A stretch of 11,732 bases of DNA from a virus. Its lineage: Duplodnaviria > Heunggongvirae > Uroviricota > Caudoviricetes. Shown piece by piece: positions 1-7,071 of the stretch. Location of the stretch: the IMG/VR virus record IMGVR_UViG_2548876857_000009; one strand, given 5' to 3'. Every line of letters begins with the position of its first letter. Within the stretch, counting starts at the first letter, position 1. Both the position numbers and the translations under genes were made by a program. The notes below the pieces were generated by a model. The model saw nothing but the letters and a program-made list of their open reading frames with translations, was not told the origin of the DNA and searched no databases.

Positions 1-168
1 TTTTGGTGTTTTGCCCTGACGCTCATCACGCAGTTGTTTGACCCATCTTGTCATTATGGAAAGGCCGATATCCATAGCTTTGGCGGCATCTGCCACCGTG
101 CAGTTCTGGTCAACAACCAGTTGAGCGGATTCGCGTTTAAACTCTGCGCTGAAATTTCTTTTTTTCAT
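1..168 (-). CDS. IS911-type transposase OrfA (HTH DNA-binding subunit), N-terminal 56 codons only; the rest lies outside the window
   Basis: Minus-strand ATG at 166-168, then [56 protein letters not shown], near-identical to IS911 OrfA as I remember it. The frame is open to the window edge. Confidence 0.8.
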
Positions 169-240
169 TGGAGCACCTGTGTTGTTCTGAGGTGAGCATA
201 TCACCTCTGTTCAGGTGGCCAAATTCAGTGTGCCACTACA
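1..240 (-). mobile_element. Left end of an IS911-like (IS3 family) insertion sequence; only ~240 bp lie in the window and the element continues past the window start
   Basis: Minus strand read from ~240 gives TGTAGTGGCACACTGAATTTGGCCACCTGAACAGAGG..., a TG-initiated terminal repeat as in IS3-family ends, followed ~70 nt later by the orfA start. I recognise the terminus and the OrfA N-terminus as IS911 from memory; not database-verified. Confidence 0.8.
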
Positions 241-1415
241 AAGTAAGCCCACCACTGCATCATCGGACGACGTTGCTCAAGGTAATCACTGCGGTTGTAA
301 GCGCGACGTACCTCATTTTTGTCTACATGAGCCAGTGCTGCTTCAATGACATCAGGCGGGAATCCTTCCTCATTGAGTGCCGTACTAGCGATAGAGCGTA
401 AACCGTGTGATACGAGTACGCCTCCTAAGCCAGCACGCTTAAGTGCGGCATTAACTGTTTGGCTGTTCATTGGCTGGGTTGGTTTGATGCGACTGGGAAA
501 GATAAACTCTCGGCCACCACTGAGTGACTTCATCATTTCCAGAATAGAAAGAGCCTCATCCGATAGTGGAACCGTATGGTCTCGGTTCATCTTCATACGA
601 GCTGCTGGAATTTTCCATTCTTTAGCACTGAAATCGATCTCATCCCATCGTGCCTCAGCGGCTTCGGCAGGGCGGGTAATGGTGAGAAGCTGCCACATGA
701 ACAAGCACCGCGTTGACATACTGATACTTGCTGTACGCATTGTTTGCATTAACTGTGGAAGCTGATCCGGACGGATACTCGGCATGTTTTTCTTTTGCGG
801 TTTCTCGAACGCTTTTCCGATATTTACACTGGGAACTGCATCAATCAGGCCTGTGTTCTGCGCATAAATCATGACTTCGTTAATACGCTGACAAAGGCGG
901 CGAACAGTCTCTAATGCACCTCTGGCCTGAACCGGCTGAACAGCTTTAACCAGAGTATGAGCCTAAATCTCAGTGACGCTGATATCACCGATTGCTGGGA
1001 AAACATCTCTCTCAAGCGAGCGCCAGATATCGTCGGCATAGTCCTCTGTTACGCTGGCTTTCTTCACATTCCACCAACGCTCGGCAACTAACAAGAAGGT
1101 GTTGGTTTTGGCCTCTTGAGAATTCCTCACCTGTTCTTTCTGGTGTTCCTGAGGATCAATATCTTTTGCCAACAAAACTCGAGATTCAGCTCTGAGTTTA
1201 CGCGCATGAGAAAGGGAGACAGCAGGGTAGGCACCGAAGCTCTGCTTGGTTCGCTGTTTGGTTAGAGGCCGATAGTAACGGAACTGCCAGAGCTTACTAC
1301 CGCTGGACTTTATTAACAGGGTCAGCCCATCACCATCATAAAGCTGGTAATCGGCATCTTTAGGTTTGGCGGCTTTGATTTCCGTATCGGTTAACGGCTT
1401 GGTTTTTCTTGCCAT
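225..1415 (-). pseudogene. int: P4-type tyrosine integrase, disrupted by an in-frame TAG at 963-965 and by replacement of its C-terminal end with the IS911 terminus
   Basis: ORF-track ORFs 963..1451 and 225..872 are in the same minus-strand frame, separated only by one TAG. Joined, they align end to end with the intact integrase at 10521..11732 (MARKTKPLTDTEIKA vs MARTTRPLTNTEVLRA, and HGLRSIASTALNEEGFPPDVIEAALAHVDKNEVRRAYNRS in both). Start taken at the ATG at 1413-1415, preceded by GGAG. The last ~5 codons and stop (225-242) fall inside the IS terminus. Confidence 0.8.
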
Positions 1416-1434
1416 GGGGAGTCTCCATGCGTTT

Positions 1435-1471
1435 AGGCCCAACGAAAACAATAGAGCTTTTCGTTGGGCCT
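1435..1471. repeat. Perfect 14-bp inverted repeat (AGGCCCAACGAAAA / TTTTCGTTGGGCCT) with 9-nt spacer, ~20 nt upstream of the int pseudogene start
   Basis: Read directly from the sequence; function unknown (possible operator or 5'-UTR hairpin). Confidence 0.5.
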
Positions 1472-1535
1472 ATCAATGGGCCTAAAAGGTTCGGATTTAA
1501 TTAGTTCTCTTCGGACTTCGCGGGACAAATTGAAG

Positions 1536-1572
1536 ACACAAAAAAGCCCGCAGGGCTTGTGCCGTGCGGGCT
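1536..1572 (-). terminator. Rho-independent terminator on the minus strand
   Basis: 8-bp GC-rich stem AGCCCGCA/TGCGGGCT (1545-1552 and 1565-1572) with 12-nt loop, followed on the minus strand by UUUUUGUGU. It lies downstream of the alpha-crr transcript and of the tRNA-3'-end-like segment. Confidence 0.6.
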
Positions 1573-1618
1573 CTTAGGACTTCATCGGATGACTCTGGTA
1601 ATCACCGATGGAGAATTT

Positions 1619-1640
1619 TGGTGGGCTGGCGGAGTTTGAA
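1619..1640 (-). other. Candidate att core or direct repeat: tRNA/tmRNA 3'-end-like segment ending in CCACCA on the minus strand
   Basis: Plus strand TGGTGGGCTGGCGGAGTTTGAA reads on the minus strand as TTCAAACTCCGCCAGCCCACCA. From memory this resembles the 3' end of E. coli ssrA/tmRNA (…TTCAACTCCCGCCAGCTCCACCA). It sits ~200 bp upstream of the integrase start on the same strand, the usual geometry for tRNA-integrated P4-type elements. No full tRNA is present here. Confidence 0.35.
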
Positions 1641-1775
1641 TAAATATTATATCGCTTTGATTTTTAACGATTTTGTTTAATTCAGTTTTTGTGCGTATAC
1701 CTAATCGTATACCAATGGCTGTAAGTTAATGTGAAATGAAAGCGCATTTTTACTTGGATTGATGCTATATCGTAC

Positions 1776-1910
1776 AGGAAAAAAAATTTTTTTTCGAAAG
1801 AACTGTTCACACTGTTCACCTTTCTGTTTTCTCCTTTTATTTCATAGTGATAGGTGGTGAATAATGGGTGAAGGGTGAACATTCGATTCTTCACCTCCGG
1901 CATTCTGCCG
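1776..1910. repeat. crr (cis replication region) direct repeat copy 1, with type-I iteron octamers
   Basis: Contains TGTTCACACTGTTCACC and the inverted GGTGAA...GGTGAAGGGTGAAC. Near-identical to copy 2 exactly 180 bp downstream (1803 aligns to 1983). Confidence 0.8.
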
Positions 1911-1955
1911 GTGTGACTCATACCGGTGATTAATCCTCCGCACTGAAATCACTCA

Positions 1956-2090
1956 GGAAGAAAAAAGTTTTTTTTGATTTGATTGTTCACACTGTTCACC
2001 TTTCGTTTTTCTCTTTTAATTTCAGTGTGATAACGGGTGAATATACGGTGAAGGGTGAACAGTGGATTGTTCACCTTCGGGGGATTCAGG
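1956..2090. repeat. crr direct repeat copy 2
   Basis: Same octamer arrangement as copy 1 at 180-bp period. Matches the P4 crr description (two ~120-bp direct repeats separated by ~60 bp) located just downstream of alpha. Confidence 0.8.
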
Positions 2091-2134
2091 GATGAAAAAA
2101 GACCGGCAGATGCCGGTCAGATGAGTCATGAGGG

Positions 2135-4468
2135 TCAGGTTGTTGCAGGGTCGTCACATTTTGGCAGCCAGTCGCCGTAGCTTTCCTCTTTCAGTGTCAG
2201 GTTGGTCTGTATCCCCTGTTTGGTATGGCGCTTCTCGTAATTCAGTCCGTATTCCTTCAGCATCACCGGCAGCCCCAGCCCGAACATTTTCAGGCTGAGT
2301 ACATTCCGGTAGCCGTTTGCCTCCATGTAGGCCAGATAGGCGTGATAGAGGTATTTACGGTAATTACGCGGGATGATACTGGCGTTCCCCATATACATGC
2401 CGCTGGTCTGCGGCAGGGTTTCCAGATAGCCGATAAAATCAAACGTCGGGTCGGCATCCCGTTTGATGTTCAGTGCCTCGTCTGAGTTCTGCTGGGACTG
2501 AAGCAGTGACCGGGCGAGCATCGGGTCGCTGAACTTCTGCATCAGGTGACGCACGATGACCGCCAGCTCGCGGGTGATTTTGTCCTTAAGCTGCGGGTCG
2601 CGCTCCTGCGGGGCTATCTGTTCCGGGAAGTGAATAATCACCCGCCGGCGTGACACGCCGCCGCTGCGGTCGGTGAAGCGCATCGGGTTATTGTTCACGG
2701 CCAGAATCACCGCCGGGATGTGCGTGGAGTATGCATCCCGGTATTTCGGGTCAACGGACACCGCATCGCCGCCGGTGATGGCCTTGAGTCCGGCACCGTC
2801 GCCGCTCCATTTTTCCTGGTCCGGCAGGCGTATCAGTGAGAAGCCAGTTAACGCGGCACGTTCACGCGGGGATTCCAGCGTCTCGATGGTGGCCGACGTG
2901 GCGTTATCCTCCCCGGCCAGCAGGGTGGCTATTTCGGCCATGATACTTTTGCCGCTGCCGCCGGGACCGGTCACCTCCAGAAAGAGCTGCCAGTCGTAGC
3001 GGTTTGCCAGCACCATAAACAGTGCGGCCAGAATCACGTCGCGTTTTTCCGCACGGCCACCGGCGGCACGGTCAAGCCAGCGCCAGAACGCGGGGGCGTG
3101 GGTTTCCAGCGTTTCCCCTTCCACCGGCGGGGTGAAATCCACATCGCACAGGGTGCGCATCCAGTGTGACGGACTGTGCGGGTGGAACGTGCCGTTCTGC
3201 GTGTCGAGCACGCCGTTACGAAAGCCAATCAGGCGGCGGGAGGGGGCTTCCTGCTGCGGAATAATCAGCTTCAGGGTGTCCACCACGGAGGCCACCTTCC
3301 CGGAGGAGAACGGCGCACGCAGCCGCTGAAACAGCCCGGCCACATCCCGGGCAAAGTCCTGTGGTGGCAGCACCTTCCAGACACCATTTTCATAACGGGA
3401 CAGAAGCTGGCCGTTGGCATCGACCGCGAGCGCCTCGCCGTAATGCTCATAGATACGCATGGCCTTTTCGCTGGTACTCATGGCGGAAAACTCCGCTTCG
3501 CTCATGGTGTCGAACGGGCTTTCAGCCGGTGGCCGGATGGCATCGTAAATGGCCTTACGGGTGGCTTCCCCGCCGTACTGCGTGAAGGCATCATTCCAGT
3601 CACCGAAGACCGGCGGCAGGGCAACAACACCTTCACACGCATCTGCGGCTGCGGCGGCTTTTTTCTGGCCGTCACCGCTGAGGTCACGGTCTGCGGCAAG
3701 GACAATCTGACAGGCCGGATGCTTCTGCCGGGCAAGGCTGGCCAGAGAAAAGAGGTTCACGGAAGAAAGCGCCACCATCACCGTTTCACCGGTCAGGTGA
3801 TGTACGGTAAGTGCGGTCGCGTATCCCTCCGCTATCCACAGACGTTTTCCGGCCTGATTCTGTCCTTCAAGGATGTGACAGGTGCCCCTGACCTGCCCGC
3901 CTTTCAGGGTGCGCTTACGGCCGTCAGCGCTGATTAACTGAAGGTTAACCAGTTCGCCGCTGTCGTCATACAGTGGCACCACAAGGTCACCGGCGCGCCA
4001 GCTCACGCCACCGGCTCTGTGTGTGCCGGTCAGCATCCGGCATTCCCGGCCGGGAAAGCCCTTGCGGGTCAGGTAGGCGTTACCGGTTCCGGTACGGGTT
4101 TTCGCCATCAGGGTTTGTGCCAGTGCGGCGGCGTTCTTCCGGGCAGCGTCTGTTTCAGCGCCGGCGGCGGCCGTCACTGCCGGGTCAGCCGGGGGCAGGC
4201 TGCCGGTCACGGCAGCCACCTTTGCGGCCGCGTCGGACGGGGAAACACCAAACACCTTTTCAACCAGTTTCAGGCCGTCACCGGCACCACACTGATTGCA
4301 GTACCAGGTGCCGCGCCCCTCCCTGTCATCAAAACGGAAGCGGTCACTCCCGCCACAGACCGGACAGGGCTGATGACGGTTCTTAAGCACCTGAATCCCC
4401 AGCGCCGGGAGAATACGCGGCCAGTGGCCGAGCGCATGGCTGACGGTGGCGGTTACGTTCATTTTCAT
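2135..4468 (-). CDS. alpha: P4 alpha-type replication protein: N-terminal zinc-binding primase fused to a D5/SF3-type helicase
   Basis: 777 aa, the same length as P4 alpha. N-terminal Cys motif CPVCGGSDRFRFDD...CNQCG; Walker A VTGPGGSGKS in the C-terminal half. RBS AAGGAGAA 8 nt upstream of the ATG at 4468. Sits between cnr and crr as in P4. Confidence 0.9.
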   Translation of the reverse strand: MKMNVTATVSHALGHWPRILPALGIQVLKNRHQPCPVCGGSDRFRFDDREGRGTWYCNQCGAGDGLKLVEKVFGVSPSDAAAKVAAVTGSLPPADPAVTAAAGAETDAARKNAAALAQTLMAKTRTGTGNAYLTRKGFPGRECRMLTGTHRAGGVSWRAGDLVVPLYDDSGELVNLQLISADGRKRTLKGGQVRGTCHILEGQNQAGKRLWIAEGYATALTVHHLTGETVMVALSSVNLFSLASLARQKHPACQIVLAADRDLSGDGQKKAAAAADACEGVVALPPVFGDWNDAFTQYGGEATRKAIYDAIRPPAESPFDTMSEAEFSAMSTSEKAMRIYEHYGEALAVDANGQLLSRYENGVWKVLPPQDFARDVAGLFQRLRAPFSSGKVASVVDTLKLIIPQQEAPSRRLIGFRNGVLDTQNGTFHPHSPSHWMRTLCDVDFTPPVEGETLETHAPAFWRWLDRAAGGRAEKRDVILAALFMVLANRYDWQLFLEVTGPGGSGKSIMAEIATLLAGEDNATSATIETLESPRERAALTGFSLIRLPDQEKWSGDGAGLKAITGGDAVSVDPKYRDAYSTHIPAVILAVNNNPMRFTDRSGGVSRRRVIIHFPEQIAPQERDPQLKDKITRELAVIVRHLMQKFSDPMLARSLLQSQQNSDEALNIKRDADPTFDFIGYLETLPQTSGMYMGNASIIPRNYRKYLYHAYLAYMEANGYRNVLSLKMFGLGLPVMLKEYGLNYEKRHTKQGIQTNLTLKEESYGDWLPKCDDPATT

Positions 4469-4482
4469 GGTGTTGTTCTCCT

Positions 4483-4803
4483 TCAGTGCAGTACCGGCGC
4501 TTTTATGTGACGGGCACAGAGTTCATCCATCACAACCAGCCCGAGAAAGGACAGCGACGGCGCGGCCTTCAGGGGGCCGGATTCCATTAAATCTTCCAGC
4601 AGGGCACAGGCTATCTGACGCCCTTTTTCCTCACCGTGCTGGCGCAGATAAAAGCCTTCCAGCTCAGCGGCGATGGCCGCCTCCAGTGATTCAAGGGTGA
4701 GATGCGGGTAGCGGTGCTGACGTTCGCACACGGTCAGCCAGGCACAGGCGACAGCACGACGGTAAAGGGCTGCGCGTAAGACGGGCGGTAAGGGTGTTTT
4801 CAT
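4483..4803 (-). CDS. cnr: Cnr-like copy-number regulator (P4 orf106 equivalent)
   Basis: 106 aa, immediately upstream of alpha on the same strand; RBS GGGAGG 8 nt before the ATG. Assigned by size and position as remembered for P4; no sequence memory to confirm. Confidence 0.6.
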
Positions 4804-4938
4804 TTGCTTTCCTCCCTGTGACAGATGACTGCATTCCGTGCCGGTTGCATTAACTGATAAGGCATATCTGCGTCTCCTGAAGACGTGCGTATCCCTGCGC
4901 GAATACGCACATTTAATTTTTCGGGTGTCGTTTTTTAA

Positions 4939-5394
4939 TTACAGATAATTGCGGTAACTGTTATCCGGGGTGATTTCCGGGTCAGGCTCCGTGCGGGGAA
5001 TTTCCCGCCATTCCCGCGCCACCGGTGCCGCCCGGCTGACCGGAACAGGGTCCTGCGGGTAAATATCCAGATATTTCTCCCGCCATTTCTGTAATTCCGG
5101 GTCTCCGGCCATTTCTTTCAGTACCGCATGCCGGTTTACGGGGCTGCGTTTAAACAGGTCAGGACGGTCACAGGTAAATTCCCGCAGAAAACGCCCCAGC
5201 GGGATGTCTGTGGTGCGCCCGTCAGCGAGGATACGCACAAGGATACTGAATTTACGGCGGTACGGGTTCCAGACAATGTCCGGGCAGCGGTACGGCATTT
5301 CCCACGGAATACCGTCTTCCAGAATGCCGACCACGGCCACATCGGGAAAACCGGCAGAACGGTAAATCTCACCGGGCTGGGGAAAATCAAACAT
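4939..5394 (-). CDS. Hypothetical protein, P4 orf151 equivalent
   Basis: 151 aa ORF in the position of P4 orf151, upstream of cnr. Its start overlaps the stop of the upstream ORF, suggesting operon coupling. Confidence 0.6.
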   Translation of the reverse strand: MFDFPQPGEIYRSAGFPDVAVVGILEDGIPWEMPYRCPDIVWNPYRRKFSILVRILADGRTTDIPLGRFLREFTCDRPDLFKRSPVNRHAVLKEMAGDPELQKWREKYLDIYPQDPVPVSRAAPVAREWREIPRTEPDPEITPDNSYRNYL

Positions 5395-5674
5395 GCGTCT
5401 TGTCTCCCCGGTCTTTCTGCTGGGCGAGAAAATCGCGGCACAGGCCTTTGGCTTTCAGCTCATTCAGCACAAAATCAATATCTTCATTCAGGTAGCTGAA
5501 AATATGCGGAATGTAGAGCTGATGCAGGCCGGAGAGTTCACGGTGAATCAAATCACCCCCAACAAACTGGGATACGGCGCTGGCGCGGTTGAGCTTATGG
5601 TAAGCCTCAATGCTGAGGTGTTCACGGGCGTCATGACGCGCTGAGACGGTCTGAGGGGCTTTTTTATTACGCAC
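5387..5674 (-). CDS. Hypothetical 95-aa protein, GTG-initiated; possible P4 epsilon (eps) equivalent by position
   Basis: The frame has no internal Met. GTG at 5672-5674 is preceded by GGAGG at 6-nt spacing and overlaps the stop of the upstream 65-aa ORF (GTGCGTAA). The eps name is a positional guess only. Confidence 0.5.
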
Positions 5675-5864
5675 GGGACACCTCCACCACCGGCAGACGG
5701 GCAGCAAGGGAGAGCACATAGTCACGGACAAGGGAACGGCGGGCGCTGCGTTCATCACCGGCGACGGTGCGAAGCATACAGATACGGGGATGACGGTCTG
5801 CGCGACGGACAGCCGCAAACACAAAGACAAATTCAGGGTGTGAAGGGGTAAGGGTTGTAGCCAT
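5667..5864 (-). CDS. Hypothetical 65-aa protein of the early-left operon (kil/eta region)
   Basis: ATG at 5862-5864 preceded by AAGGAG at 8-nt spacing. It is the 3' part of the ORF-track frame 5667..6302, whose upstream portion I regard as noncoding. Confidence 0.5.
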
Positions 5865-5929
5865 AAGGCAGTCTCCTTCGAGTAGCAAATAACTGCTATC
5901 GCCGGAGTTCCTACGCTCGATGGCGATAG

Positions 5930-6000
5930 CCCAGACGGGGGTAGGAATACCGGCCTCGAAGAATACCGGCCAGCCCGGAGGCTGCCCCGCCTGAGCTACC
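5930..6000 (-). ncRNA. Candidate CI-RNA-like immunity RNA (seqB-like element); approximate boundaries
   Basis: On the minus-strand transcript AUUCCUACCCCC (plus 5937-5947) is complementary to GCGUAGGAAC, which occurs upstream (plus 6150-6159) and downstream (plus 5907-5916). This is the seqA-seqB-seqC arrangement of P4 immunity. The region also has tRNA-like motifs (GGUAGCUCAGG, UUCGAGG), consistent with RNase P processing. No convincing ORF with an RBS. Confidence 0.3.
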
Positions 6001-6253
6001 ATTGACTCAGTGGCATAACATGCGATTGCGAACAGGATCATACCTGCACGGCAAACCACACGCCACACCATAATCTGGCGCTCTGTGGCGTTGATTGCGA
6101 CACAAAAAAAGACGCATGGCGCGTCATATGTCGCCTTCGAGTTACACGGGTTCCTACGCCCGGCTGCCGATTTTGCGGCAGCGGAAAAACTATATCCGCA
6201 AATGCCGGAAAAAGGCAAGCCAGAAAAAGGGACTTTTTGCAGAGCGGGCATCA

Positions 6254-6520
6254 TCATGCGTCGTACCCCCGTTTGCGTCCGGCAATGCGTCCGGCCATCC
6301 ATGCGGTGACTTCAGAGTGCAGCCAGGCCACATTTTTACCGCCAAGACTCACCTGCGGCGGAAATTCCCCCTTACGGATGAGTTCGTAGATGGTCGAGCG
6401 TGACAGGCCGCACAGGTGCATCACTTCCGGAAGACGCAAAAAACGCTCCTGTGTGATGTCCGGCTGCGGCATCAGTGGCGTCACAGGGGCGGGAGACGGG
6501 GAAGAAAAAACAGCTTGCAT
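6254..6520 (-). CDS. vis: AlpA-family DNA-binding regulator, Vis-like (P4 orf88 equivalent)
   Basis: 88 aa. Motif [48 protein letters not shown] is typical of AlpA/Vis HTH proteins. RBS GAGGT 7 nt upstream. It is the first gene downstream of the leftward TGT-N12-ACA dyad. Confidence 0.75.
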
Positions 6521-6622
6521 CGGGCTACCTCGTTAATGTCCATACAGCACCGGATAAGTCCGTCCGGCTTCGGGTAGCGCTTTATTTTGTGAATATTTTC
6601 AGCAGACGCAACAGGGGGAATT

Positions 6623-6640
6623 TGTTCCGGCAACCTTACA
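6623..6640 (-). promoter_or_regulatory. Candidate Delta/Ogr-dependent late promoter element (PLL-like) driving leftward transcription into vis
   Basis: TGT-tccggcaacctt-ACA (TGT, 12 nt, ACA). P2/P4 late promoters carry this dyad centred near -55, which would place the start ~50 nt upstream of the vis ATG. Confidence 0.45.
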
Positions 6641-6796
6641 ATGGCTGTGTGTTTTTTATCCATCCGGACTGGAAGGGTCTCAAAGGGTTCTGAAGGACCT
6701 GGAATTTTTTATAGTGAAATGCAAATTGTTTTTTCTTATTTATTTCAGTTAATTAATAAAAATAAACAGTAATAAACAGCATAAAAAGCCCATCAA

Positions 6797-6904
6797 CGGG
6801 TGAACAGTGGTGAACAGACGGTGAACAGTCATTACTGCGATTATTCACCCTTTAACTTACTGTATTACTTATCTTTTTTCTTATGGTGAACAGAGGTGAA
6901 CAGT
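6797..6904. repeat. ori-like iteron cluster (replication origin)
   Basis: GGTGAACAG three times in tandem (6798-6828), an inverted TTCACC (6845-6850), then GGTGAACAG twice (6886-6903): six octamers in an AT-rich context. The same octamer occurs in crr ~4.9 kb away, matching the P4 ori/crr arrangement. Confidence 0.75.
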
Positions 6905-6981
6905 AAAATATAAAAAAACAAACAGTAAGCCGGTTTTTCCTGCGACCTTTTCCTGGCTTGCCGGTCTGAGGATGAGTCTCC

Positions 6982-6999
6982 TGTGTCAGGGCTGGCACA
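6982..6999 (+). promoter_or_regulatory. Candidate Delta/Ogr-dependent late promoter element (Psid-like)
   Basis: TGT-gtcagggctggc-ACA dyad ~80 nt upstream of the sid ATG; possible -10 CACAAT near 7034-7039. Confidence 0.5.
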
Positions 7000-7071
7000 T
7001 CTGCAATGCGTCGTGTTGTTGTCCGGTGTACGTCACAATTCTCTCAACCTGAAGTGACGAGGAGCCGGAAA

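Follow-up and report, generated by a model that had tools for sequence, protein, structure and literature searches.

An IS911-group insertion sequence end at a probable deletion junction, outside a P4-like satellite integrated at ssrA

The left edge of the window (i.e., the whole 11,732-nt stretch of viral DNA analyzed here, IMG/VR record IMGVR_UViG_2548876857_000009) holds, on the minus strand of positions 1 to 240, the left end of an insertion sequence (IS) of the IS3 family. Taken together, the data make it very likely that this is the IRL end of an IS911-group element of about 1.25 kb, which lies outside the neighboring P4-like satellite, sits at a probable deletion junction, and is cut by the end of the source contig. 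The features of the window on which this reading is based are listed in Table 1.

Table 1. Features of the IS end, the adjoining integrase pseudogene, and the satellite in the window
Feature	Position	Strand	Basis or remark
orfA, codons 1 to 56 of 100	1-168	-	ATG at 168-166; the rest is lost at the end of the source contig
IS leader between IRL and orfA (IS positions 37-72), with ribosome-binding region	169-204	-	Identical to the IS911-family copy
IRL, left terminal inverted repeat, 36 bp	205-240	-	TGTAGTGGCACACTGAATTTGGCCACCTGAACAGAG (begins TGTAGTGGCAC...); 35/36 in the IS911-family copy L006
AAG, intA target triplet adjoining IRL	241-243		Deduced from the empty site in L002
intA pseudogene, CP4-57/ssrA-type tyrosine integrase, codons 1 to 392 of 413	241-1415	-	tblastn, Pfam
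intA upstream region in its native form, found between ssrA and intA where no satellite is present	1416-1620	-	238-1640 aligns at 99.7% to L002
Hybrid attachment (att) site, true left end of the satellite	1621-1645		ssrA 3'-end repeat TGGTGG plus satellite-borne GCTGGCGGAGTTTGAATAAATATT
P4-like satellite integrated at ssrA	1624-11732		Primase, Icd-like protein, AlpA, Ogr/Delta, Psu, C4 antisense RNA, cargo, integrase
Satellite's own intact integrase, 403 aa	10524-11732	-	Pfam integrase domains; 64% identical to IntA

A megablast search with positions 1 to 242 matched features annotated as "IS3 family transposase" in 4,263 of 5,426 complete Escherichia coli genomes (median, one place per genome; maximum, 24), with a best identity of 99.2% (i.e., two mismatches in 242 bp). 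Over its entire length, the 56-residue OrfA peptide matched the Pfam model HTH_Tnp_1 (E = 3.5e-8; 34 bits; cutoff, 24.1). The IS3-family match of this segment is far beyond chance. An earlier reading of the window, made from the sequence alone, had staked its IS3-family assignment on the terminal 240 bp finding such a match, and both searches returned one. Its proposal of an IS911-like IS3-family end abutting the 3' portion of a degenerate integrase is likewise borne out by the junction itself and by the HTH_Tnp_1 match.

The structural features of the family are also present. IS3-family elements begin with 5'-TG and end with CA-3', and terminal repeats that start with TG are found at both ends: the IRL, read from 240 to 205, begins TGTAGTGG, and the IRR of complete copies with the same junction begins TGTAGTGGTCAAC. 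The upstream gene, orfA, encodes a helix-turn-helix protein, 56 codons of which lie within the window, and the helix-turn-helix part encoded in positions 1 to 168 is common to the regulator OrfA and the transposase OrfAB. In the complete same-junction copies, orfB, with its rve domain, is fused to orfA by a -1 frameshift; the corresponding part of the window's copy lies beyond the contig end. Both the IRL and the leader that follows it are 36 nt long. The pIRL promoter of IS911 is weak, and a scan of positions 1 to 242 for consensus sigma-70 promoters, which returned nothing, is consistent with such a promoter. Translation of the minus strand agrees with the sequence-only reading in that the window begins within orfA. 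The IS end was placed by that reading at positions 1 to 242; the end is indeed there, but its terminus is position 240, and positions 241 to 243 are already intA DNA.

The gene joined to the IRL is annotated as intA or integrase in the relatives. In a tblastn search with the intact 413-aa IntA (L002; intact next to ssrA in SC477), residues 1 to 393 matched at 99.7% identity. This match runs to window position 237 because the first IS bases encode equal residues by chance; the intA-derived bases end in codon 392, and the frame continues into the IRL as ...YFVVAH before meeting a TGA at positions 225 to 227. The pseudogene retains the Pfam domains Arm-DNA-bind_3, Phage_int_M, and Phage_integrase. 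Since the catalytic domain model is covered nearly to its end, it is clearly an internal stop, and not the IS, that kills intA. This stop, an in-frame TAG at positions 963 to 965 (K151*), is also present in both satellite-bearing relatives (L001 and L005), while no internal stop is annotated in the four other genomes with the same junction. The alignment to satellite-free genomes (L002) extends through the intA upstream region to position 1640, toward ssrA, and then breaks. Together with the satellite boundary described below, these alignments assign the degenerate integrase and the IS to an older ssrA island, which integration of the satellite would have displaced.

The sequence-only reading had instead assigned the degenerate integrase to the satellite and had taken the IS to mark the left limit of satellite sequence. 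Within the window, the integrase and the IS do immediately adjoin the satellite genes, but this assignment is almost certainly wrong. Positions 1621 to 1645 read TGGTGGGCTGGCGGAGTTTGAATAAATATT, in which the 3' end of ssrA (TGGTGGAGCTGGCGGGAGTTGAA...) is fused to the satellite-end sequence of strain 98206 (L009), and an intact integrase of the satellite's own lies at its other end. Five other contigs (L010 to L013 and L015) match the satellite from position 1624 to position 11732 with 100.000% identity (10,109 bp), and in them its left neighbor is either an autotransporter island or the normal chromosome flank (with a csiD/glaH-type gene, PF08943); neither intA nor the IS occurs beside the satellite in any of these five. 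The satellite adjoins ssrA in L009 to L013, with no intA or IS beyond it, and it is the satellite integrase that adjoins ssrA in the relatives. Conversely, the truncated intA and the IS are found directly beside ssrA, without the satellite, in RM14723, EC12, and Z1323HEC0355. The hybrid attachment site, together with the identical satellite copies that have no intA or IS, refutes satellite ownership of the degenerate integrase, and on the same evidence the IS neither lies between the att repeats nor travels with the satellite. ARAGORN detected no tRNA or tmRNA in the window, which holds only the short repeat of the ssrA 3' end.

The satellite itself carries a P4-type RNA immunity region on the minus strand (5919 to 6195), in which a C4 antisense RNA (5919 to 6006), isrK (6105 to 6182), and a c4 a1/b1 target (6143 to 6195) all scored above the Rfam gathering threshold. 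In P4-like satellites, the variable slot between psu and the integrase often holds defense genes. The cargo region of the window's satellite (9140 to 10554) differs from those of the satellites in L001 and L005, and no Pfam match was obtained for its 328-aa open reading frame (9283 to 10269, plus strand) or for a 57-aa open reading frame in the same region. From position 1624 on, the window's satellite and that of L001 (15624 to 26010) have diverged by about 1.7%, carry different cargo, and share only 79% DNA identity in the integrase. Because differing satellites stand on the same background of truncated intA and IS, the comparison points to independent acquisition or exchange of satellites at ssrA in the window strain and in L001. 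In strain 377323_2f (L018), this ssrA slot is occupied by another element, one that carries a tyrosine recombinase.

The outer limit of the IS in the window is an assembly feature. Once reverse-complemented, AIAY01000114.1 (L014; a 37.6-kb contig of GCA_000446525.2) contains the whole window exactly from its second base on, and this contig ends 1 nt before window base 1, inside orfA. The IS therefore looks truncated because the draft assembly broke in a multicopy repeat, and the other IS end and any target duplication are absent from the source contig because the contig stops inside the IS. Alternatively, the window could hold a solo remnant (i.e., an IS piece only a few hundred bases long, in a genome with no full element). 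Remnants of IS911 cut down to about 250 bp are common, many partial matches lie on plasmids, and a 254-bp IS911 segment has been described downstream of hlyD on alpha-hly plasmids (PMC2918590). However, a contig break inside an IS is the usual behavior of assemblers at multicopy full-length repeats, and IS copies of full length, 1,249 to 1,251 bp, are present in all six relatives with the same junction, which makes a solo remnant very improbable.

Only two bases, 56 (T38I) and 101 (Y23C), distinguish positions 1 to 1623 of the window from the satellite-bearing relative Z1323PEC0014 (L001). Both changes are nonsynonymous and fall in the helix-turn-helix of OrfA. A third OrfA substitution relative to IS911, V34I, is common to the IS lineage, whereas Y23C and T38I are private to the source contig and are carried by none of the best-matching copies in complete genomes. 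No more than 101 nt separate either change from a contig end that falls in a multicopy repeat, and Y23C and T38I may therefore be assembly errors rather than real change.

The far side of the IS is visible in complete genomes. The 140-bp junction (171 to 310) was found at 100% identity in only 6 of the 5,426 complete genomes, and in all six the IS is full length. Its IRR there abuts residues 142 to 413 of a second integrase, a homolog 84% identical to IntA, which is followed by IS debris and the espC/espG island. The triplet outside the IRR is ATT, that beside the IRL is AAG, and so these six relatives lack the 3- to 4-bp direct target duplication typical of the family; its absence indicates a rearrangement and does not argue against membership in the IS3 family. 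In enteropathogenic strain E2348/69, the second integrase is full length (although a pseudogene) and without such an IS; it is the EspC island's own integrase. The EspC island adjoins ssrA and holds an integrase and several putative transposases (reviewed in PMC7545054). An intact intA with its cargo island (Hachiman and ABC-three-component genes) is present in ChlosBP-23-1, and this island is partly deleted in SC477. Given a full-length second integrase and an intact intA island elsewhere, the two flanks of the IS normally lie a whole island apart, in the same order and orientation.

The different gene across the IS and the missing target duplication in the six relatives make an IS-bounded deletion the simplest reading, in keeping with the earlier suggestion that sequence beyond the IS may have been lost or rearranged through it. 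As a counterpoint, the source contig stops in orfA, and the left-hand structure is seen in the relatives only; the source genome presumably shares it. The default outcome of IS3-family transposition would be a simple insertion, with a complete IS in intA, a duplicated AAG (positions 241 to 243 would then equal one copy of the 3-bp target duplication), and, on the far side, the missing 21-codon tail of intA followed by the remainder of its island. The IS911-family copy L006 has such a duplication (GTG) at both flanks, and the far side of the window's IS is outside the source contig. We nevertheless regard a simple insertion as quite unlikely, given that every one of the six genomes with the identical junction has a different far-side gene and no duplication, and that the window is only two bases away, over positions 1 to 1623, from one of them (L001).

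On the deletion reading, an IS-mediated deletion most likely has one of its boundaries where the IRL meets intA. Lost in that event would have been the intA tail (21 codons), the entire intA island, the att site that follows it, and codons 1 to 141 of the EspC-island integrase. The satellite would have entered ssrA later and pushed the truncated intA and the IS away from ssrA. The resulting order, from right to left, would be ssrA (beyond the window), the satellite integrase, the P4-like satellite, the att site at 1621 to 1645, the truncated intA, and the IS.

A second lineage has an IS at the same breakpoint of the second integrase. Roughly 20 genomes have this integrase in truncated form. 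SC477-type genomes carry a 99.84% identical copy there in the opposite orientation: the breakpoint (...GTCGCCAATT) is joined to the IRL in SC477 (L021, 11429 to 12677) and to the IRR in L001 (12990 to 14240). The other IS end in SC477 lies inside the gene for the Hachiman DEAD/DEAH helicase. If one ancestral insertion in the second integrase had been followed by nothing but simple adjacent deletions, the window-type and SC477-type orientations could not both have arisen. The products of replicative inversion, worked out by hand, did not match the observed flanks either.

IS911-group elements have also met the 3' end of intA more than once. In strain MS 124-1 (L004, 7214 to 7240), the IRL of ISEc52 is joined to intA 15 bp further in, in the same orientation, and the far side of this ISEc52 copy is a truncated AIDA-repeat gene; here an IS911-group deletion junction arose at the intA 3' end a second time, independently. 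Since the IRLs of two elements are joined to intA within 15 bp and in the same orientation, and since the two lineages have opposite IS ends at the second-integrase breakpoint, one could suppose that the intA 3' end is a natural preferred target of IS911-group elements through IS-end-like sequences. In laboratory studies, IS911 is reported to carry out end-targeted strand transfer. An IRL-like stretch, TCAGTG[AGTC]TGCCACTA, does lie in intA about 13 bp from the junction. In an end-mimicry test (80-bp windows, four repeats, both strands), the intA site came only within the top 3.8% of the background, and the ISEc52 site in intA, the second-integrase breakpoint, and the Hachiman helicase breakpoint were unremarkable (0.25 to 0.59). 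As a general explanation of the junctions, end mimicry is rejected on these results; as a cause of targeting at the intA 3' end, it is a weak lead, and the preferred-target idea is unlikely.

The feature at the left edge of the window is the ordinary left end of a common, well-sampled IS911-group element that is already annotated in public genomes. It offers no new IS biology, and its value is practical, chiefly as a correction of the satellite boundary. The satellite extends from about position 1624 to the integrase at its right end, and neither the dead integrase nor the IS should be taken for a part of the satellite or for a sign of its decay. In the window's lineage, ssrA holds a stack consisting of the satellite, a remnant of the intA island, and then probably the EspC island. 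The left edge of the window should be treated with caution as an assembly break in a repeat.

To place the IS type, the window's 240 bp were compared with the complete same-junction copies, a Shigella sonnei plasmid copy (L006), and two copies of ISEc52. L006, which the PGAP annotation labels "IS3-like element IS911 family," was used as a stand-in for IS911 and is not the ISfinder reference sequence; by the same kind of annotation, the window's IS type is labeled only "IS3 family transposase." The window matches L006 at 235 of 240 positions (97.9%). The five differences are A3T in the terminal repeat, two bases that together give V34I in OrfA, and one base each for Y23C and T38I. The sequence-only reading was therefore correct in reporting one mismatch in the repeat (TGTAG versus TGAAG) and a few OrfA substitutions. 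Its term "variant copy" is apt insofar as the element differs from IS911, but TGTAG is not private to this copy: all eight complete copies of the window's IS type that were examined start with TGTAG at both ends. The published IS911 IRR is TGAAGTGGTCAACAAAAACTGGCCACCGAGTTAGAG, starting TGAAGTGG (i.e., TGAAG; PMC2909936, Table 1), and the window's IS, with T at position 3, departs from the published terminal repeats (TGAAGTGG...) expected of an IS911 isoform. A literature search with TGAAGTGGCAC for a published IRL returned unrelated papers only, so that the published comparison is with the IRR oligonucleotide and the IRL comparison rests on the PGAP-labeled copy L006.

The complete copies of the window's IS type are 1,249 to 1,252 bp long, with A AAA AAG at position 324 and an annotated programmed frameshift. 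The OrfAB reconstructed from the RM14723 copy (L003, 5992 to 7240) matched Pfam rve (E = 2.5e-31). Four of the six same-junction copies, both satellite carriers among them, have a true 2-bp frameshift in orfB. By the ISfinder convention, an isoform shares at least 95% DNA identity and about 98% protein identity over the whole element. The whole same-type element is 91.2% identical in DNA to the IS911-family copy and 88.6% identical to ISEc52; identity to IS911 is 98 to 100% at positions 1 to about 480 and about 85% from position 500 on, in orfB. OrfAB is 92.8% identical to that of the IS911-family copy and 92.5% identical to that of ISEc52. On the basis of these sequence identities, the window's IS type would, by the 95% convention, be a separate member of the IS911 group and not IS911 proper. 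The window alone cannot show this divergence because it holds only the IS911-like part of the element.

The element type would work as IS911 does. The N-terminal helix-turn-helix of OrfA would bind subterminally within the 36-bp repeats, OrfA would be fused to the DDE (rve) catalytic domain by a -1 frameshift at A AAA AAG (outside the window), and the element would move through a circle by copy-out and paste-in. For IS911 itself, 36-bp repeats, a 100-aa OrfA, the -1 frameshift, and the circle intermediate are described (PMC2909936).

Among known systems, IS911 (IS3 group; first found in Shigella dysenteriae) has the same 36-bp repeat layout, an IRL that agrees at 35 of 36 positions, the frameshift site A AAA AAG at the equal position, and a similar length of about 1,250 bp. 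Its OrfA differs at three positions from the 56 residues encoded in the window and at V34I alone from the 100-aa OrfA of the complete same-type copies. It differs from these copies in that they share 91% of its DNA and 92.8% of its OrfAB, the divergence being concentrated after position ~480, in orfB; in that both of their repeats read TGTAG rather than TGAAG; and in that their IRR departs from the published one at 3 of 36 positions. With regard to the surrounding islands, the EspC island is entirely absent from the window; in the six complete relatives, the IS sits between the truncated CP4-57-type intA and the truncated espC-island integrase, whereas the EspC island of E2348/69 has its integrase at full length and no IS911-like element. 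ISEc52 resembles the window's element in belonging to the IS911 group and in its layout, but it shares only 88.6% DNA identity with the same-type copies, and its IRL reads TGAAGTGGTTTAC... Another counterpart is the IS911-like copy on pO157 of E. coli O157:H7, between eptO and ehxC, which is 99.6% identical to the complete same-junction copies and has TGTAG ends. It differs by a 3-bp insertion just past the frameshift site and by being plasmid borne, while the window's copy is chromosomal and joined to intA. The window's IS type is the same as that of pO157 and of the EspC-island region of some E. coli strains.
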